Shown piece by piece: positions 11,499 through 60,221 of a DNA stretch of 64,000 bases (position 1 is the first letter of the stretch; each line of letters begins with the position of its first letter). Position numbers and translations under genes: made by a program. Under the pieces are notes generated by a model, which saw nothing but the letters and a program-made list of their open reading frames with translations, searched no databases and was not told the origin of the DNA. The stretch comes from an uncultured Oscillospiraceae bacterium (GTDB lineage Bacteria; Bacillota; Clostridia; Oscillospirales; Ruminococcaceae): contig CAJUHS010000002.1 in NCBI GenBank assembly GCA_910586535.1, positions 167,790-231,789 on the forward strand. The letters are read 5' to 3'.

Positions 11499-12380
11499 TT
11501 ATTTGAATGTGACCTTGTTTTTATGAAGCATTATCACAGGGTAATAGGAACGCTTTGACCTGCGCAGTCCTTCCAGACCCAAATCCTCTTCTCGGTTGAT
11601 GTAGCTGTATCCAACAGTCGCAGACTTTGCAAACTCATTATTTATGGCGGCATATGCACCCTGTATATCCGAGTTCGCCTTTTCAATGTGAATATCAAAT
11701 GTGTCTGAATTTATGCCGTCTCCGATTGTAAAGCCCTGAACCTTGTTGTCCACACGGATAACTCCGCCCTTTAATTCCAGTTCACCAAAATAGTTCATAA
11801 AAGTATTTATAGCATACTGCTCCGCAACGCTGGATTCGTCATCGTATGATTGATTCAGATTGTAACTATTTACAGCAAATTCAATACACTCGTCGAAATC
11901 CTTTTCAGTCAGAATAGAATATTCCCAATTGTTTTCGTAGAATCTTGCTATGTGATTCCTTTTTTTGTGGTATTTCTTGCCGGAAAGCGTCCTGAGCTTT
12001 TCCGCGTCATAAATATAGTCGCAGTCAGATTCATCACAGGAAACGCTGTACTGTCCCTCGAAAAGTTCCTCAAAAAGACATAAGTTTTCATCTGTAACCG
12101 AACTTACCGTCAGAGGATTTCCAGTTTCCTCCGCTTCCCTTTTTAAGGTAAGGAACAGATCCTTATAGTCTCCGATCCCTGCGGGAAAAGTAAAACTCAT
12201 ACCGTATTTCATGGAGCGGGAAATATAGAAATCCTTATATCTGCATATAGCAGTATCGTATAGCCTGTGCCATGCAAAATTATTTGAAAAATTGTACTCG
12301 CAGCCTCTGAAGTCCGATTTTTTCAATAGATCGGTTATCCAAGGCCTGTCGGAAAGCTCAATAACCTTAAAATCCAACAT
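11499..12380 (-). CDS. Hypothetical protein, possibly DUF2156 (MprF C-terminal-like, GNAT fold)
   Basis: 293 aa soluble protein; weak resemblance to DUF2156 family. No firm motif. Confidence 0.45.
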   Translation of the reverse strand: MLDFKVIELSDRPWITDLLKKSDFRGCEYNFSNNFAWHRLYDTAICRYKDFYISRSMKYGMSFTFPAGIGDYKDLFLTLKREAEETGNPLTVSSVTDENLCLFEELFEGQYSVSCDESDCDYIYDAEKLRTLSGKKYHKKRNHIARFYENNWEYSILTEKDFDECIEFAVNSYNLNQSYDDESSVAEQYAINTFMNYFGELELKGGVIRVDNKVQGFTIGDGINSDTFDIHIEKANSDIQGAYAAINNEFAKSATVGYSYINREEDLGLEGLRRSKRSYYPVIMLHKNKVTFK

Positions 12381-51577: not shown

Positions 51578-53359
51578 TCAGCCGTAATATGCGGTGATGG
51601 TAATATCGCTCTTAATATTTTCAAGGCTCTTGTCCCAACCAAGGAAACGGTTTCCGTTGCTGTCGGTTATAGGCCAGAACGGAGGCTCTGCGGTCTGTCC
51701 GTCAGGAGTTTTTACAGTATAGAACTGACCGTCTATTATAAAAGTGACAGTATGATACTCGCCTGTTGCAAATACCGCTGTGATAGTGGTATCAATTATA
51801 ATATTGTCAAGTGACTTATCCCAGCCTATAAAGCGGTTTCCATTAACATCTGTGCTGGGTATATACGGAGGAATAACAGCTCCCCCATGTTCAACCTGAA
51901 CTGGGTAAGTGTCGTTTTCCACAACAAATGTAACCGTATGAGTACTTGCCTGTTCAAGGATCGCAGAAATAACAATATCTTCAGTAATATTTATAAAATC
52001 CTTGTCCCAGCCTTTAAAGATGTAACCCTCCACATTTATAGTTGACGGCAGATTGGCAGATTTCCCGTGTTCAACCTGAATAGTATTCGACTTGTTTCCG
52101 ATCACTACCGTTACAGTATGCATGATTTCATTCGAATCGGAGGCAAATTCGTTGAACTGAGCTGTAATAATCCTATCCTCTGTAATATTGTCAAACGAAC
52201 CGTCCCAGCCGATAAATTCCAGACCTTCTATAACCGGATCTTCAGGTTTAACGGCATTTCCGCCATGGATTATTTCCTGAATAGTTTCTTCGCCGTCTAC
52301 AACAATTGTGACCGTATGGTAAACCCCGCTGTTATCCGAGGTTTCCGCAGGAACAGTTTCTGTGGCAGGTACAGTAGTAGTAACAGGCGCCGCCGTTGTT
52401 GTAACTATCGGAGCAGCTGTTGTGTATCCGGGAAGAGTTGTTTCTGTAGGAGCGGGCGCAGTTGTGACAATAGGCTCGGCAGTCTGAATGGTATCGGAGC
52501 TGTCAGTTACCGTCTCGTCCGGCTTCTGCTCAATAGGAGGCGCCGCCTCATTGTCATTGCCGTCTGCCTTTTTATCGTATGCTGCTTTTAATTCTTCTGG
52601 AGTATAGGGAAACTCTCCGCCTATAATTGCGGCAATGGTTATTAGATTTTTCAGATCGGAAGCGGAAAGCTCCTCCAAATCAAAATCCAAATTTAGCGCT
52701 TCAAAGGAAGGACCGTCTTCAGAGACTATCCGTCCCCATTTTTTAGCTATCTGAAGCTCCGCGTTATTTACAGGATTTCCGGCCGCGTCATAAAGCTGAA
52801 TACTGTTATCGCCCATAAAGGTGTACAGGTCGGTATAGGACATAAACTCGTTAGTACTGTAGGAAATTTTTGACACACTTTTATCTGTCGAGATCATAGA
52901 GTCAGCAGTCCTTATGTTTATTGAGCAGCGATCCTCGTCCGCAAAATTTCCTATTACCGAACCGCTTCTCAGAAAAAGCTCTCCGTTTTCCTTGCCGTTA
53001 AATTCTCCCGACACAACGACCTGGGAATCCGAACAGAGAACAATATAATTTTTCTCTGAATTTTTCTTTCCTTTATAGGTAAGTATGCATGAGGAATCCG
53101 CTCCGAGAGTAACAATATCACCGTTTTTAAGCATATCACCGCTTGCAGAGCTTGTTACGGAATCGGAATTTGTAACGCTTACGCTTCCCGAAGCTGACGA
53201 TATGTACAGTCCGTATGAGGAGCCTCCGCCTCCGGTTACAACAACCAGTGTAATAACTACCGCGATCAGCGCACATCCTCCGAGGATAAGCGGTATCTTA
53301 AAATTATTTATAAAGTCTTTCATAAATGTTATGCCCGATCCGGTTATAGTCCGGATCAT
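51578..53359 (-). CDS. Membrane-anchored protein with FecR-like domain, Thr/Pro-rich linker and four C-terminal Flg_new (Listeria-Bacteroides) repeats
   Basis: 593 aa; N-terminal TM; four about 60-aa repeats each containing G[W]D…F…NITED…I.A.F and a FKGW/FIGW/FLGW motif typical of Flg_new/InlB-B-repeat domains. Confidence 0.6.
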   Translation of the reverse strand: MIRTITGSGITFMKDFINNFKIPLILGGCALIAVVITLVVVTGGGGSSYGLYISSASGSVSVTNSDSVTSSASGDMLKNGDIVTLGADSSCILTYKGKKNSEKNYIVLCSDSQVVVSGEFNGKENGELFLRSGSVIGNFADEDRCSINIRTADSMISTDKSVSKISYSTNEFMSYTDLYTFMGDNSIQLYDAAGNPVNNAELQIAKKWGRIVSEDGPSFEALNLDFDLEELSASDLKNLITIAAIIGGEFPYTPEELKAAYDKKADGNDNEAAPPIEQKPDETVTDSSDTIQTAEPIVTTAPAPTETTLPGYTTAAPIVTTTAAPVTTTVPATETVPAETSDNSGVYHTVTIVVDGEETIQEIIHGGNAVKPEDPVIEGLEFIGWDGSFDNITEDRIITAQFNEFASDSNEIMHTVTVVIGNKSNTIQVEHGKSANLPSTINVEGYIFKGWDKDFINITEDIVISAILEQASTHTVTFVVENDTYPVQVEHGGAVIPPYIPSTDVNGNRFIGWDKSLDNIIIDTTITAVFATGEYHTVTFIIDGQFYTVKTPDGQTAEPPFWPITDSNGNRFLGWDKSLENIKSDITITAYYG

Positions 53360-53368
53360 CTCCTTTCA

Positions 53369-54505
53369 TTAATTTTCAGCTTCGGAAGTTCCTGCGGTAA
53401 CAGTAGACTCATCACTGAAATTATCGTCTGTCTCTGCAAACCAGTCTTCATAGCCGTCGGTGCCGGTATTGGTATTTCCTGTTATCTCCCACCATTTTAC
53501 GCCCGAGTAGGTAGTATATACATGGGTCTTCAGAGTTGTACCCAGCGTTCCGTATGACTCATCGTCCGTTTCAGTTTCCTCAATAGGCGGAGAAGTTGTC
53601 ACGACAGTAGTTTCTGTGGCAGTTACTGTAGTTGTTACAGTAGTATCGGAGGAATCATCTGTAACCGATTCGGTTGCCGTTTCCTGCTTGAGCCGTTCGT
53701 CCCTTACAATCTTATAGGCATGATTTAGTTCCTCAGGAGTAAACGCAAGCTCCTTTTCAGCGCACGCCCGTATAAGCTCTCCGAGCGTCGAATCGTTAAG
53801 GGTAAGCAGATCGAAGCTGTAATTAAGATATCCGTATTTGCACATTTCCTCCGAAGTAAGCATTTGAGCCGCAGTACGTTCAATAAGCAGCATAGGCAGT
53901 TCATAGGGCTGCTTATCTGCATCGTAAAGCTGGAGAGAGACCGTGCCGTCAAAATTTTGCACCTGAGTTATCATAACATCCTTATAACCCATATACTCCT
54001 TTACATAGTCAAATTCAGCCCGAAATGCCGTTCCCTTTACCGAAACGGAGCTGTTAGGAGTTTTAAGTGAAAACGTGGCGTTTTTCTTCAGCTTGTTGTT
54101 AAGCCGGCAAATTACCGCTCCTCTGGTCAGGTTTACGGAAATGTCGCCTTTTGAGTCAACATCGGTAAAATATATGTATACTGTGGACTCCGGTTCTATC
54201 CAGACAAATTTATCCCTGTCAACACTTATCCGCACAAAGCTGTCCTCTGCAGTAGTAATAATGTCTCCGCTTTTCAGTGCAAACTGCTTATCCGCGTTAA
54301 GCCGTCTGCTGTCGCGGGAAATAAAAGCCGTACCGCTGATATCGGTAACAATAAGCTGTCTTGCCACGTCTCCGCCAAAATACAGGCTTAAAACTATAGC
54401 TCCCGCAAGAACCATAAGTATACTTATAACGCCGATCATTATAAGCTTTAAATTTTCGGAAAGGATCTTTATCAAATCACAGCCGCCTTTCAAAACTGCA
54501 AACAT
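53369..54505 (-). CDS. Paralog of the preceding gene: membrane-anchored FecR-like domain protein with Thr-rich acidic tail, no Flg_new repeats
   Basis: 378 aa; aligned blocks with the neighbour (SLQLYDADKQPYELP vs SIQLYDAAGNPVNNAEL; FTPEELNHAYK vs YTPEELKAAYD). Confidence 0.55.
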   Translation of the reverse strand: MFAVLKGGCDLIKILSENLKLIMIGVISILMVLAGAIVLSLYFGGDVARQLIVTDISGTAFISRDSRRLNADKQFALKSGDIITTAEDSFVRISVDRDKFVWIEPESTVYIYFTDVDSKGDISVNLTRGAVICRLNNKLKKNATFSLKTPNSSVSVKGTAFRAEFDYVKEYMGYKDVMITQVQNFDGTVSLQLYDADKQPYELPMLLIERTAAQMLTSEEMCKYGYLNYSFDLLTLNDSTLGELIRACAEKELAFTPEELNHAYKIVRDERLKQETATESVTDDSSDTTVTTTVTATETTVVTTSPPIEETETDDESYGTLGTTLKTHVYTTYSGVKWWEITGNTNTGTDGYEDWFAETDDNFSDESTVTAGTSEAEN

Positions 54506-54764: not shown

Positions 54765-55150
54765 TGGCAAAGCTTAACGCAGTCAGCGAAAAGCTTCGGT
54801 ATTGCGACTAAGCCGATAAGCCGGGTTTTGTCGTGTGCGGAAATCTATCTGGGCGAATCGTCGCCGAAACGCTCAAGCCGTCGTTGCAATGCGTCTGCCG
54901 AGCAGACAATAACGCATTGTTCCAAAATGACGTTGCATCGGACAGGGTTTACATGGCAGCGCAGTCTCCTGCGCTCCGGTGAGCTCTTACCTCGCCTTTC
55001 CACCCTTGCCGGAAAACCGGCGGTATATCTCTGTTGCACTATCCCTAAGGTCGCCCTCGGCTGCCGTTAGCAGCTGTCCTGCTCTATGATGCCCGGACTT
55101 TCCTAACGCAGACGCGCAATGCGCATAAAGCGTTCAACCGCATAGCTTAC
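54765..55150 (-). ncRNA. rnpB: RNase P RNA (ribozyme component of RNase P), bacterial type
   Basis: The minus strand carries both universally conserved P4 blocks. The first is …GTTAGGAAAGTCCGGGCATC… (plus-strand 55085-55105 reverse-complemented). The second is …ACGACAAAACCCGGCTTATCGGC… (plus-strand 54803-54825). 5' and 3' ends can pair (GGUUGAACGC / GCGUUAAGCU, P1). TTGACA-17-TATACT promoter at 55161-55189 (minus) and a downstream terminator. No ORF of substance; about 385 nt. Confidence 0.85.
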
Positions 55151-55160
55151 TCGCATTATA

Positions 55161-55189
55161 AGTATACCACATATTTTTGCGGATGTCAA
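55161..55189 (-). promoter_or_regulatory. Sigma-A promoter of rnpB
   Basis: On the minus strand: TTGACA (55189-55184), 17-nt spacer, TATACT (55166-55161), then TATAAT-like extension. Confidence 0.5.
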
Positions 55190-55270
55190 ATACGTATAAA
55201 TATTTTAAAAAAGCAGGAATTTTTTTACCGCTTTTTGCGAAAAACTCATTCCTGCCTTTTGTTTTTAAAA

Positions 55271-56146
55271 TTATTTGAACAGATCTCCGTTTTCGACCCA
55301 CAGATCCAAAGAGCTGGGATCTCCCGCCGCAGCCGCTCTGAGGACAATGCTTGTGTCCTTCATTGGAAGTGAACTGCAATTTTTTCCCACGCTTATATCA
55401 CCGTCGGCAGTTTTAAAGCTGCCGCGCTCAAAGCTCATATGAGAAACATTGCTGTTTGCCGATTTATCCGAAATAACACTCTTCACAACGGAAGCAAGCT
55501 TCTTTGACGGGAAACCATACTGTGATTTAGCATTGAACCGCAAATTAGACAACTCGCTTGCAACAGCGTCTCTCATCTTTCTGTTCATGCCCATAATATT
55601 TCCTCTTCTGTCCACAGAAAGCTCGGAAATATCCTGTCCGAAGCACTTTTCCAAAGCTTCTGCAACAACGGAATAATAAGCCTCGGTCATTTTGCCGTTT
55701 AGTATTTTAGAAGCGTTCGCAATACTGTCAATATCTACCTTTTTCATTGATTTGTTCAAAGCGTTCTGAACTCCGCTGAGATACTTTTCGTCGGAAATTT
55801 CCGTTATTTTCGCTTCGCCGCTGTTTACGTCATAATCAAACTTAAAACTGATATTTTCAGGTACGCCCTCGTCAGAAAGATTTTTCTTCATAGCATCGTC
55901 AAAATTTCCGCAGGACTTTGAAAGAGTCAGCATAGACTTAGCCGCCTTTACACGGTAATCGCCAAGACTTGCGGAAGTACCGAGTTCTTTCAGCGAATCG
56001 CTTGTAATGTTTGAGAAACGATCATATTTAAAGCCGCTGTTGTTCTTAACACCCGACGTCTGCTTAAGCGTTTTGCGGGAAGAACGATTTGCTGACAGTC
56101 CCAGCGCACTGATACGGCGGCGCATACCGCTAATATTCTTTAACAT
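55271..56146 (-). CDS. Hypothetical soluble protein (about 290 aa), third gene of the DUF1538/P-II operon
   Basis: AAAAGGGG RBS before the ATG at 56146 (MLKNISGMRRR…); Ser/Lys-rich, no recognisable domain or TM. Confidence 0.45.
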   Translation of the reverse strand: MLKNISGMRRRISALGLSANRSSRKTLKQTSGVKNNSGFKYDRFSNITSDSLKELGTSASLGDYRVKAAKSMLTLSKSCGNFDDAMKKNLSDEGVPENISFKFDYDVNSGEAKITEISDEKYLSGVQNALNKSMKKVDIDSIANASKILNGKMTEAYYSVVAEALEKCFGQDISELSVDRRGNIMGMNRKMRDAVASELSNLRFNAKSQYGFPSKKLASVVKSVISDKSANSNVSHMSFERGSFKTADGDISVGKNCSSLPMKDTSIVLRAAAAGDPSSLDLWVENGDLFK

Positions 56147-56240
56147 ATAAAAAGACCCCTTTTCGTCATATATAATATATATCGGCACAAATTCAAAAAA
56201 CTTTAGGAAAAATAACTACTTTTCCTAAAGTTTTTTGAAA

Positions 56241-56921
56241 CTATTTTACAATATCTTCTATTCTGACGCTTGTTCCCGCAAGGCCAAGCGCACTGTCAAC
56301 CGGGAGCGAGAAGCATATTCCGCGGCTTTCGGTTAGGATTCCAGCCGCGTCAAGGATATTCTGCATGACCCTTTCCCTGTCTTCCCTGCCGACAACAATG
56401 AGTACTACGTCCTTTTCAGGCTGAATTGATATGCCCAGAAATTTTGCCGCTTCTTCGCCGCCAAGTCCCAGACCGTGCAAAAGTGTTCCTCCGCGTGCCC
56501 CTGCCGCTTTGGAAGCCTCTTTGACAGCCTCAAATCCGCCTCGGTTCACAATAGTTATTATCATTTCGTATTTGGCTTCGGACATTTCGTTATCTCCCTC
56601 CGTTTCGGGTTTAGTACCGTTTATCGCAAACGCCGTTCCTGACGCTCCGCTGATAGGTACTGTAAAGGCTATACCCCTGCCTGCCTCGCTGAGAGACAGC
56701 TTTTTATTAAATGTATCGTAAAGCTTCATCACCCGTCCGTTTGGTACAAACACCGCGGCAATAACTTTTTTGTTGTCACCGAGACCAAGATAATCGAGCA
56801 TAGCCGAGTCAGCCGAACCGTGACCGTGAAGCAGGAAACGGCACGGAAGATTCTCCCGCTCAAGAATGCTGTGTACGTCCTGCGCGCGTCTATAGTCCGC
56901 TATCAGAAACATTGCTTTCAC
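56241..56921 (-). CDS. Tandem P-II-like (GlnB superfamily fold) protein, two about 100-aa repeats
   Basis: Two halves each with a P-II-like pattern (GARGGTLLHGLGLGGEE… / …EAGRGIAFTVPI). Probable GTG start with GGAGAG RBS; located immediately downstream of the DUF1538 gene. Confidence 0.55.
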   Translation of the reverse strand: MKAMFLIADYRRAQDVHSILERENLPCRFLLHGHGSADSAMLDYLGLGDNKKVIAAVFVPNGRVMKLYDTFNKKLSLSEAGRGIAFTVPISGASGTAFAINGTKPETEGDNEMSEAKYEMIITIVNRGGFEAVKEASKAAGARGGTLLHGLGLGGEEAAKFLGISIQPEKDVVLIVVGREDRERVMQNILDAAGILTESRGICFSLPVDSALGLAGTSVRIEDIVK

Positions 56922-57003
56922 TTTCCGGCTCTCCTTTCTCGTGCGTGGTATTTTTACTTTTAGATTAAATCCCCTAACTATCAAAATTCATTTGCATCTG
57001 TCG

Positions 57004-58575
57004 TTATTTCTGAGTACCCACATCAAGGCTCGACTTAGTATCCGTAAAAACAGCCATGTCGCAGCTCTCGTCCAAAACGATCGGGAATACCTGTCCGCTC
57101 TCGCATATACGGTCGGACCTGACAGTCTTAAACCTGCTGATAAGACCTAATATCTGGATGGTCAGCAAAGGAGTCATAGCTACCATTGCAACGATCCCGA
57201 ATGCGTCGGTGGAAATATTTCCTCCTCTGGCAGCACAGGCTCCCATAGCAAGAGGAAGCAGAAATGTGGCAGTTAATGGTCCGGAGGCAACGCCGCCGGC
57301 GTCAAACGCTACCGAAGTAAAAATAGGCGGTACAAGCAAGCTTATAATAAGAGCAAGAACATAGCCGGGTACCAAAAACCATAAAATGGATACTCCAGTG
57401 AGCACCCTAACCATGGATATACCGACCGAAGCGGCAACGCCCAGCGCAAGGCTTATCCCAAGAGAACGCCCGGAAATACGTCCTTCGGTAATTGTCTCAA
57501 CCTGCTGCTTCAGCACGTGTACCGCAGGCTCTGCCGATACGATAAAGTAGCCGATCAGCGCACCTATAGGGACAAGCAGCCAGGAGCCTCTTCCTCCCGC
57601 AAGATTTTCTCCTATGTGCTGACCGACAGGCATAAACCCCACGTTTGCCCCTGTCAGAAACAGTACCAGTCCTACATATGTGAATCCAAGTCCCACAAAA
57701 ATTTTAAGCATGGTTTTCGTGTCAAGCTTGAGAAATATTACATCAAAAACAAGAAAGAAAACCACAATAGGAATAAATGCTGAAGCCACGTCCTCTATGT
57801 AATGCGGAAAAGCCCGCAGAAATTCGCGGAAACTTTCAGAAATAATATCATAATTTTCAGGATGAGTAAGAGTCTGTTCGGCAGTTTCGGTACTGTTCAG
57901 AGCGCCAAGCAAAAGCACGGTAAGGATAGGTCCGATAGAACACATAGCAACCAGGCCGAAGCTGTCCTCCGCAGAGGTCTTATCGCCGCGGATAGATGAA
58001 AGTCCAAGACCGAGAGCCATTATGAACGGCACAGTAATAGGTCCGGTGGTAACTCCGCCCGAATCAAAGGCAGCCGGTATAAAGCTCGGAGAAATAAGCG
58101 GTGAACAGGCAAAAATAAATATCAGCGCATAAAAAGCTATGAATACCGCCGATATTTTTACCTGCATAAAAATACGCAGAAATGCAAGGGTAAGGAAAAT
58201 TCCCACGCCAACGCCCACCGACCATATCATGATCTGTGTATCGACAATGGGAGTCTGCTCCGCAAGAACCTTTAGGTCAGGCTCTGCAACGGTAACAAGC
58301 ACTCCTATCAGAAAACAAACCGGAAGGATAAAGGCAATTTTTCTGGACTTTGTAAGACGTGCTCCGATCTTTTCGCCGATAATTATCATAGACGTATCTG
58401 CTCCAAGCGTAAACATTCCAATGCCTACAATGAGCAAGATAGTTCCGACAAAAAAGGAAAAGAACATCTCGCCGCTGAGCGGAACGACCGTTACCGACAG
58501 CAAAAAAACCACAGCCGCCACGGGAAGCACAGCTCCCAAAGATTCTTTTATCTTTTCAATAAGGTTTTTCTGCAT
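57004..58575 (-). CDS. Fused double-DUF1538 integral membrane protein (putative permease)
   Basis: About 520 aa; two homologous halves, each about 6 TM with a conserved …VAEPD/SAEPA… motif (TVAEPDLKVLAEQ and IVSAEPAVHVLKQQ). GGAAAGGAG RBS before the ATG at 58575. Confidence 0.65.
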   Translation of the reverse strand: MQKNLIEKIKESLGAVLPVAAVVFLLSVTVVPLSGEMFFSFFVGTILLIVGIGMFTLGADTSMIIIGEKIGARLTKSRKIAFILPVCFLIGVLVTVAEPDLKVLAEQTPIVDTQIMIWSVGVGVGIFLTLAFLRIFMQVKISAVFIAFYALIFIFACSPLISPSFIPAAFDSGGVTTGPITVPFIMALGLGLSSIRGDKTSAEDSFGLVAMCSIGPILTVLLLGALNSTETAEQTLTHPENYDIISESFREFLRAFPHYIEDVASAFIPIVVFFLVFDVIFLKLDTKTMLKIFVGLGFTYVGLVLFLTGANVGFMPVGQHIGENLAGGRGSWLLVPIGALIGYFIVSAEPAVHVLKQQVETITEGRISGRSLGISLALGVAASVGISMVRVLTGVSILWFLVPGYVLALIISLLVPPIFTSVAFDAGGVASGPLTATFLLPLAMGACAARGGNISTDAFGIVAMVAMTPLLTIQILGLISRFKTVRSDRICESGQVFPIVLDESCDMAVFTDTKSSLDVGTQK

Positions 58576-58736
58576 AAACCGGCTCCTTTCCTCATTTATT
58601 TTACCCGTTAAATAAAAAAACGCATATATGCTGACAGGCAAAACCATAAAGGCAAGCCGCTATCCGTTGTATCCACTACCACGAAATTACTGCTTCCCTT
58701 ATGAAAAAGTTACTGTCGGCATAAAGCGCAAAACTT

Positions 58737-58997
58737 TTATCTGTGCGGTCTCGAACTTACCGTGGTGATCGCTTTTGTTACAGCTACGTCAATATCTATA
58801 GTGTTCTGATATTTGGTAGTATCCAGTCTGCTGAACAGCTCTCCTTTGTGGGAATTTACATACTTGGGCTTAAGAGCGTTAAGAGCCAGCGCCATCATAT
58901 CGTCCATGCATTTATCGCATTTGCAGCAGTCCACCTCTTGTAAAAGGAATTCAAGCCGTCCCCTTACAACACTCTCCATAACATTAACAACAGCCAT
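58737..58997 (-). CDS. ComFB family protein (small Cys-cluster protein)
   Basis: 86 aa; …EVDCCKCDKCMDDMMALALN… matches the ComFB CCxCxxC signature. Confidence 0.6.
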   Translation of the reverse strand: MAVVNVMESVVRGRLEFLLQEVDCCKCDKCMDDMMALALNALKPKYVNSHKGELFSRLDTTKYQNTIDIDVAVTKAITTVSSRPHR

Positions 58998-59045
58998 CGC
59001 AACATCAACATCCTTTCATCTATACCGTCAGAAATCCACGCTTAA

Positions 59046-60221
59046 TTAGAGCGATACATTTCTGTTTATGACCTCAATGCACATTCTTCCGTTGTGATAC
59101 GGACATTTCCACGGGTTTACCATGTTGACAGTCTGCATAGGCTTGCCGTCAAAGTCAACCTCTCCCCACCATTCCGAATTTTCACGCTTATCAGTCTGTT
59201 TAGTTTCTATCCACTCAAAAACCTTATCGGCAGCGTCAAGGAACTTTTTGTCTCCGCCCTGCTGAAACGCGTTCACAAAGCCGACCACGCTTTCCGCCTG
59301 TACCCACCAGACGCGTTTTTTGTCAACCTTGTCATTTTCACGTTCATTGTTTACCGCTCCGTTTTCAAAAGCGATATCGTATATATTTTCGGCGATACGC
59401 AGGTCAATAAACCGCCATTTCGCCATGAAACGTCTTTCCCCTATTACCTCACAGGCTCTGTCAATGAGCCATGACGCTTCGATATCGTGACCGTAGGAAT
59501 GGATATCCCCTATCTCGTTAAACTCACGGTCAAAGAACACCCGCAGGCAGTTTTTGCCTCCGTTAAAAATCTTGTCCTCGGCAATCTTTAACAGGAACAT
59601 CAGCCGTTCCTCTATATGAGCGCTCTCTCCGTTTTCACAGGCCTCAAGCAGTACTGTATAGGCTTCGATAAGGTGCAGAACAGTATTCATGGTCTTGTCA
59701 GCCATAAGACCATTCTCCGAAAGCGCGTCGTTCGGGATTATCTGCCAATCCTCAGACATAGCTTCAAGGTACGCCACATCGTCCCTGCACTTGTCCTCAA
59801 CCGTATGGAAAAGCTCCAGCGCAAGATCGAGAGCCGTTTTGTCCTTTGAGGCAAGATAATACGCCGACAAAGCATATATGGCAAACGCCTGATTGTAAGT
59901 ATGCTTCATGGTATCGATGGGCTTGCCGTCGTAAGTCATCATCCACCAAACGCCGCCGTTGACCGTATCCACGCATTTTTTCAGGAACTCATAGGCATGG
60001 CGGGCATTGTCAAGCAGATATTCGTCTCCCAGCGTTCTGTAGCATGATGAATAAAACCACAATATCCGCGACGTAAGTATCACGCCTTTGTCGGCAGTCT
60101 TATCCACATTCAGATCGTTGTCCATAAAACCGTAGAAACCGCCGTTTTCATCGTCCCGAAGTCTGTTCCAGAAAGGCAGGATACGCTCCGTAAGTTCTTT
60201 TCTGCATTTATCAGCCAGCAT
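59046..60221 (-). CDS. N-acylglucosamine 2-epimerase (AGE) family epimerase/isomerase (cellobiose/mannobiose 2-epimerase-like)
   Basis: 391 aa; (alpha/alpha)6-barrel AGE pattern (…GGFYGFMD…, …HTYNQAFAIYALSAYY…, …WWVQAE…). Confidence 0.8.
   Translation of the reverse strand: MLADKCRKELTERILPFWNRLRDDENGGFYGFMDNDLNVDKTADKGVILTSRILWFYSSCYRTLGDEYLLDNARHAYEFLKKCVDTVNGGVWWMMTYDGKPIDTMKHTYNQAFAIYALSAYYLASKDKTALDLALELFHTVEDKCRDDVAYLEAMSEDWQIIPNDALSENGLMADKTMNTVLHLIEAYTVLLEACENGESAHIEERLMFLLKIAEDKIFNGGKNCLRVFFDREFNEIGDIHSYGHDIEASWLIDRACEVIGERRFMAKWRFIDLRIAENIYDIAFENGAVNNERENDKVDKKRVWWVQAESVVGFVNAFQQGGDKKFLDAADKVFEWIETKQTDKRENSEWWGEVDFDGKPMQTVNMVNPWKCPYHNGRMCIEVINRNVSL

Follow-up and report, generated by a model that had tools for sequence, protein, structure and literature searches.

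In the genome of an uncultured Oscillospiraceae bacterium (GenBank assembly GCA_910586535.1), a window of 64,000 nucleotides (contig CAJUHS010000002.1, positions 167,790 to 231,789 of the forward strand) carries on its minus strand two adjacent genes that are the subject of this analysis: one codes for a membrane protein in which two DUF1538 domains are joined in a single chain, and the next for a protein with two PII-like domains. Few signalling proteins are as widespread as PII, whose control of transporters is, to our knowledge, understood for a few partners only, i.e., AmtB, SbtA and the nitrate ATP-binding cassette (ABC) transporter. An original prediction, made by a model from the letters of the window, had placed the two genes, together with a third one for a protein of 291 amino acids, in one uncharacterised operon suggestive of ligand-gated transport. 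The features of the pair, in window coordinates, are the following.

57004..58575, minus strand: single-chain DUF1538 permease, 523 amino acids, the fused counterpart of the A and B subunits of unfused DUF1538 pairs
57856..58575, minus strand: N-terminal DUF1538 half of the permease (residues 1-240), A-type, 7 helices, N-terminus predicted inside
57007..57855, minus strand: linker and C-terminal DUF1538 half (residues 241-523), B-type, orientation predicted opposite to that of the N half
56241..56921, minus strand: tandem PII-like protein, 226 amino acids, GTG start, length equal to that of its homologues
56610..56921, minus strand: N-terminal diverged PII-like domain (residues 1-104), T-loop equivalent HGHGSADSxxLDYLGLGDNKK
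56244..56582, minus strand: C-terminal PII-like domain (residues 114-226), T-loop GLGLGGEEAAKFLGISIQPEKD, equivalent to the single PII of the unfused form

The reading frame of the membrane protein had been recognized correctly, although its length of 524 included the stop codon, and its composition of two fused DUF1538 halves that both retain an AEP motif was confirmed. The Pfam model PF07556 (DUF1538) gave two full-length matches (E 6.6e-130, 431 bits versus a gathering cut-off of 22.6), and the halves align with each other over 243 amino acids at 31% identity (E 1e-29). The AEP motif is found at A97-E98-P99 and again at A348-E349-P350, with E98, P99, A348, E349 and P350 being invariant across 32 permease homologues. 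The N half has the further motifs LGAD, AFDSGGVTTGP and RGDK, its AEP reading AEPD, and the C half has TGAN, AEPAVH and AFDAGGVASGP. When these halves were compared with DUF1538 pairs encoded by two separate genes, the N half was 30-36% identical to the product of the first gene (24-27% for the lower alternative) and the C half was closer to that of the second (37-41%); by these alignments, the A subunit has its equivalent in the N half and the B subunit in the C half.

The AlphaFold2 model of the permease (predicted local distance difference test, pLDDT, 80; predicted template-modelling score, pTM, 0.80) was all-helical and showed two similar halves, with short broken helices at the FD[SA]GGV..GP motifs. 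The orientation of the halves was followed through the distribution of lysine and arginine (K and R), which in the N half number 11 on the side of the N-terminus and 1 on that opposite, the bias being flipped in the C half (4 versus 9). Over the 32 homologues, an antiparallel model of 7+7 helices placed 21.5 K+R inside and 4.0 outside, compared with 15.8 and 9.6 for a parallel model, and an opposite bias was also present between the A and B subunits in all five of the unfused pairs examined. These counts point to antiparallel halves of 7+7 helices with both termini in the cytoplasm. For UmpAB, a two-subunit transporter of the same family, 7 transmembrane segments were predicted per subunit (PMC5484666), which is consistent with this model.

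The linkage of the permease with the PII-like protein was followed in two samples. For the fused form, one genome per species was scanned with an alignment of the tandem PII, which gave 161 relatives, and 80 loci were retained. In 79 of them, the tandem PII gene is directly preceded by a fused DUF1538 gene on the same strand, and the exception ends at a contig edge. This adjacency holds down to 38% identity of the PII protein in otherwise unrelated flanks, the two genes are usually a few bases apart or overlapping, and in many of these loci a textbook hairpin with a T-run comes straight after the PII gene. The closest relative is an uncultured mouse-gut Oscillospiraceae genome, with a PII protein that is 97% identical. 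The fused and tandem form was also found in all three contexts that were looked up (Paraclostridium, Peptoclostridium and Cellulosilyticum), and a protein-level search of plasmids gave fused permeases with a PII of about 222 amino acids in Paraclostridium and Peptoclostridium. Clustering of all flanking open reading frames of the 80 fused loci revealed no third conserved gene. Two metagenome-assembled genomes labelled Bacteroidota have a Clostridia-type locus, L006 (Prevotella sp.), whose neighbourhood is near-identical to that of the window, and L075 (Muribaculaceae), which suggests mis-binned contigs.

In the unfused form, the order DUF1538-A, DUF1538-B, single PII was found in six of six individually looked-up contexts, of which two are Proteobacterial plasmids of Methylocystis and Chelativorans, with a single PII of 113-123 amino acids, and four are further homologues on long contigs. 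The second sample was obtained by scanning metagenomes with the B subunit, where the best 80 of 234 matching contigs were taken. These loci share 56% identity or more with a single Methylocystis B subunit and are thus from one branch of the family. Among the 68 loci with enough downstream sequence, a single PII directly followed B in 66, one of the remaining two having its PII upstream instead and the other none. The gene for PII lies upstream of A in L106 (483-779) and L157 (169-465), and in L126 no PII was detected within 1.5 kb downstream. The conserved motifs are common to the samples and their queries, which means that the coverage extends to two branches and not to the whole family. The pairing of DUF1538 with PII is old and general, because the unfused form is found on Proteobacterial plasmids and in 66/68 metagenome loci; it recurred in all three samples, i.e., species genomes, metagenome contigs and several plasmids. 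The hard-wiring of the PII-like protein to the permease, as originally proposed, was thereby borne out (79/80 fused, 66/68 metagenome and 6/6 looked-up unfused loci), and so was the fusion of both partners into tandem-domain proteins: permease fusion and PII duplication always came together in the sample examined.

The view of the 226-amino-acid protein as two P-II-like repeats stood directly for its C half, which matched the Pfam family P-II (PF00543) at 28.2 bits versus a cut-off of 25. The N half had no Pfam match, and its kinship to PII was seen only through hhalign profile comparison and in the modelled fold. The N half aligned with the C half with a probability of 95% (E 2.7e-8), and the C domain with the single DUF1538-linked PIIs with a probability of 99.5% (E 9.6e-23, 38% identity), so that, as judged from the profiles, the N-terminal domain is a diverged duplicate of the C-terminal one. 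The AlphaFold2 model of the monomer (pLDDT 74, pTM 0.70) consisted of two beta-alpha-beta-beta-alpha-beta domains with the canonical PII fold and the T-loop between strands 2 and 3, and a Foldseek search with each domain matched GlnK, PII and PotN at a target template-modelling score of about 0.7; no structure of the PII superfamily covered the two domains together. The T-loops were modelled at low confidence, as is usual for flexible loops. The mean frequency of the top residue over 77 sequences was 0.77 for the whole C domain and 0.88 for its T-loop, and 0.58 for the N domain and 0.75 for its T-loop equivalent; in these alignments, the T-loop regions are the best-conserved parts of each domain. 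Searches of PHROGs gave no meaningful match for the tandem PII-like protein or for the 291-amino-acid protein, and a Pfam scan at E up to 0.01 yielded PF00543 alone, with no match to the PstA/DarA family of cyclic di-AMP receptors.

The canonical ligand site for ATP, ADP and 2-oxoglutarate (R38, Q39, K58, G87-D88-G89-K90, R101 and R103) was compared through an alignment with E. coli GlnB taken from NC_000913.3, the numbering being that of GlnB. In the C domain, R38 is replaced by L, Q39 by G, G87-D88 by S-R, K90 by I, R101 by G and R103 by A, and a lysine lies one position away from K58. The only positions retained are G35, G89, F92 and, in part of the sequences, G37. Compared with the T-loop of canonical PII (about 20 residues), that of the C domain lacks 6 residues, and the position of Tyr51, which like Ser49 is a modifiable residue of canonical PII, falls within the gap. 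The loss of the effector-binding residues counts in favor of the alternative that the tandem PII is a constitutive structural or assembly subunit, or a CutA-like ion- or metal-binding cytoplasmic cap, instead of a signal-dependent gate. The packing of the two modelled domains speaks for it as well: 150-160 residues of the model could be aligned with tandem ferredoxin-like subdomains from resistance-nodulation-division (RND) pumps, an arrangement that would be a side-by-side pseudo-dimer and not a PII trimer. However, regulatory PII proteins typically have T-loops that are long, flexible and extremely conserved, as those of the tandem PII are, the domain falls in Pfam under P-II and not under CutA, and UmpAB functions in E. 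coli without a co-expressed partner, and we consider a purely structural subunit or cap to be quite improbable.

What the transporter might carry is best approached through UmpA and UmpB, which are the only characterised DUF1538 proteins. Their existence corrects the original prediction, in which the substrate had been regarded as experimentally undefined: UmpA and UmpB of Halomonas zhaodongensis perform Na+(Li+,K+)/H+ antiport, for which both subunits are required (PMC5484666). When present together, not singly, they gave the E. coli strain KNabc tolerance of NaCl, LiCl and pH 8 (PMC5484666). The cloned umpAB fragment ended at umpB, so that the pair was active without a PII partner (PMC5484666), which fits a regulatory and not a catalytic role for PII. 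A machine-learning study of optimal growth pH counted DUF1538, along with families of K+ and Na+/H+ transport, among its most informative Pfam families (PMC13255231). With the NCBIfam equivalogs for UmpA and UmpB (NF041627 and NF041628), the permease of the window reached 142 bits (cut-off 490) and 130 bits (cut-off 500), and the unfused PII-linked pairs were equally far below (82-135 bits). The function of UmpAB is not simply transferable to the permease.

The neighbours of the unfused arrays also speak for cation handling. Tandem Usp genes stood beside them in 15 loci and P-type cation ATPase genes in 7 loci, and the arrays of L107-L110 are flanked, on their own strand, by genes of the K-channel-like and the Na_H_Exchanger/TrkA_C type. 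The gene run of these four loci (e.g., L109, 570-5453, plus strand) reads K-channel-like (Ion_trans_2), tandem Usp, A, B, PII and Na_H_Exchanger with TrkA_C, and looks like a monovalent-cation homeostasis cluster. Some unfused loci adjoin anion carriers of the CitMHS/ArsB or SulP type. A CBS-domain partner, which the original prediction had thought might be present elsewhere, did not appear: none was seen when the neighbours of the 80 fused loci were clustered by sequence and a few representatives scanned with Pfam, and the recurrent neighbours of the unfused form were tandem Usp, P-type cation ATPase and other cation transporters.

The anion carriers, as well as the distance from the equivalog cut-offs, can be read in favor of the same two-gene architecture with a substrate other than an alkali cation, such as bicarbonate, ammonium or amines, or a small organic or inorganic anion, with the PII-like protein reporting the carbon, nitrogen or energy status; these candidates follow the other transporters that have dedicated PII partners. 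We regard such a substrate as unlikely, though deserving of weight, as the family's sole experimental result is cation/proton antiport, cation-handling genes are the most recurrent neighbours, the ATP and 2-oxoglutarate residues by which PII would carry carbon and nitrogen information are absent, and a gut anaerobe has no obvious need for a carbon-concentrating mechanism.

The known paradigm for the control of a transporter by PII is that of a valve plug, as described for AmtB and SbtA (10.1101/2023.08.10.552651). The present pair resembles GlnK-AmtB in that the gene of a PII-fold protein with a long, conserved T-loop adjoins that of a membrane transporter on its downstream side. It differs in that the DUF1538 family is unrelated to AmtB and without a solved structure, and in that a two-domain chain stands in place of a homotrimer of single domains. 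GlnK-type nucleotide sensing, to which the original prediction had appealed, found no support in the tandem PII, which has no counterparts of R38, Q39, K90, R101, R103 and Tyr51 and whose T-loop lacks 6 residues. With SbtB-SbtA, the pair shares a dedicated PII-like protein that is co-transcribed with a secondary transporter of inverted-repeat design, which in the present case is a prediction, and by analogy the logic of gating from the cytoplasmic side is likely the same, whereas the R-loop of SbtB and the adenine-nucleotide-binding arginines in the T-loop are missing here. PotN and CPII are likewise PII-like proteins of transporter operons that are dedicated to one transporter, but their partners are an ABC polyamine importer and inorganic-carbon pumps, and they are single-domain, nucleotide-binding trimers. 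As for UmpAB itself, it shares with the permease the Pfam family, two homologous halves (both needed in UmpAB) of about 7 helices each, and a gene order, A then B, that equals the domain order N then C. The differences are that the permease, known from its sequence, is one polypeptide, that it scores at about 30% of the equivalog cut-offs, and that the PII partner, always present in the fused form sampled, is unmentioned in the UmpAB paper.

On balance, we favor a PII-regulated transporter encoded by two genes as the probable nature of this pair. The first gene would code for a single-chain version of a two-subunit DUF1538 transporter of the UmpAB family, with two inverted 7-helix halves, in which the ion path is probably formed by the conserved acidic and glycine-rich helix-break motifs (LGAD/TGAN, AEP and FD[SA]GGV..GP). 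The second gene would provide a dedicated cytoplasmic regulator with two PII-like domains whose conserved T-loops, by analogy with GlnK-AmtB and SbtB-SbtA, may bind the permease from the cytoplasmic side and, upon a small-molecule signal, open or plug it. The classical ATP/ADP/2-oxoglutarate site is probably not where this signal is perceived, since the aligned ligand positions are not conserved. The most likely substrate would be a monovalent cation (Na+, Li+ or K+) exchanged against H+, an assignment to this particular permease that we make tentatively and hold to be a little less than evenly probable. The domain content, the internal duplications, the strict linkage of the genes, the limits of the operon and the loss of the canonical PII ligand residues were read from the data, and the antiparallel topology, the contact of the two proteins, the direction of regulation and the substrate are inferred.

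Several observations weigh against this interpretation. With its canonical ligand residues lost, the tandem PII might not sense a ligand in the first place. Alone, a chain of two domains cannot make up the classical three-domain PII trimer, so that the geometry of GlnK and SbtB may not apply. Contact between the permease and PII is drawn from the parallels with known systems. The permease lies so far under the UmpA/UmpB cut-offs that its substrate could differ, and the assignment of UmpAB itself rests on expression in a foreign host. The fused Clostridia loci are without informative neighbours. Finally, upstream of the permease gene, Rfam gave no riboswitch or leader, either in the window at gathering scores, over 55100-59100 at E up to 1, or in 20 diverse related loci, and there is thus no RNA clue to the ligand. 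A cobalamin riboswitch was found directly downstream of the PII gene in L022 (7841-8025, plus strand), where it presumably controls the next gene and not the DUF1538-PII module.

A bolder possibility, and a rather doubtful one, is that DUF1538-PII represents a third and hitherto undescribed class of PII-gated transport, defined by inverted 7-helix halves in a transporter fold without a solved relative, a PII that does not use ATP or 2-oxoglutarate and, in Clostridia, a pseudo-dimeric regulator. If this were true, the PII-like regulator would sense, e.g., an ion, pH or a second messenger, each of its two domains would pair with one of the two non-equivalent faces that the permease turns to the cytoplasm, and a PII protein working otherwise than as a trimer would be without precedent.

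PII-gated transporters and the UmpAB antiport were already known, while for the DUF1538-PII module, here in its fused single-chain variant, no published description was found: full-text searches, which leave most subscription journals outside their coverage so that absence is not proof, gave no paper linking a PII protein with DUF1538 and none describing a tandem PII of the DUF1538-linked kind. The sole functional study of the DUF1538 family expressed the permease pair without PII (PMC5484666). Study of the module could show how UmpAB-type antiporters are regulated and what their physiological role in salt and pH homeostasis truly is, and it could yield a PII-like sensor of a new ligand as well as a transporter fold not seen before. 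As both partners are fused in parallel, they also amount to a natural single-chain construct, which would be handy for structural work.

The limits of the operon were derived from the features that surround the pair, as follows.

58737..58997, minus strand: ComFB-family gene (PF10719, E 1e-23), 161 nt upstream of the permease gene
56192..56239, minus strand: hairpin of 22 bp with flanking A- and U-runs, directly after the PII stop (free energy, dG, -26.9 kcal/mol; z-score -8.4)
55271..56146, minus strand: soluble Ser/Lys-rich protein of 291 amino acids, a neighbour that is not part of the conserved module
55202..55271, minus strand: terminator-like hairpin with a U-run after the 291-amino-acid gene (dG -23.3 kcal/mol; z-score -5.3)
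54801..55153, minus strand: rnpB, RNase P RNA class A (RF00010, 254 bits)

The hairpin at 56192-56239, detected by a terminator scan followed by folding, is probably an intrinsic (bidirectional) terminator that ends the two-gene operon. The original prediction had extended the operon, and the system, to the 291-amino-acid protein as a functional third component. Its gene is on the same strand and closely spaced in the window, and the trio is kept in L001-L007; however, these are the 7 closest of the 80 related loci, and the gene is absent from the other 73. Strong hairpins with U-runs flank it on both sides, the 22-bp one separating it from the PII gene, and the protein family is tiny, with 15 clusters matched among 1.84 billion representative proteins. 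In L001, the closest relative, a diverged second copy that is 33% identical is found a few kb away (11684-12298, minus strand), distant from the DUF1538-PII pair and on the opposite strand to it. The three-gene reading is close to refuted and has, in our estimate, hardly any chance of being correct; the three-gene operon was rejected. From the narrow occurrence of the gene and its flanking hairpins, it follows that the conserved unit is a two-gene operon of permease and tandem PII, and of the neighbourhood foreseen by the original prediction, it is the pair that proved to be conserved (79/80) and not the trio. The description of the 291-amino-acid protein as domain-less was upheld, with no match in Pfam, NCBIfam or the sequences of the PDB, as was the position of the genes beside rnpB.

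Upstream, no terminator-like site was found between the ComFB-family gene and the permease gene, and the two may be co-transcribed in the source organism. A ComFB-family protein might bind cyclic dinucleotides. As a functional partner it was rejected, its upstream position being seen in some closer relatives only, which indicates synteny: the ComFB, epimerase-like and DUF1015 genes are upstream only in some relatives above about 70% identity. The gene for rnpB is preceded by a promoter-like site at 55161-55189 (TTGACA-17-TATACT with a TG extension, 11/12 matches). It also adjoins the DUF1538-PII pair in a distant Capillibacterium genome (L072, 7736-8134, minus strand), on the opposite strand to the pair, and this recurring adjacency may be chance or old synteny. 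Downstream of rnpB, at 51578-54505 on the minus strand, lie the genes of two large, weakly alike proteins (25-29% identity), one with a FecR domain and the other with Listeria-Bacteroides repeats and a Thr/Pro-rich linker, which are kept with the neighbourhood in L002-L007.

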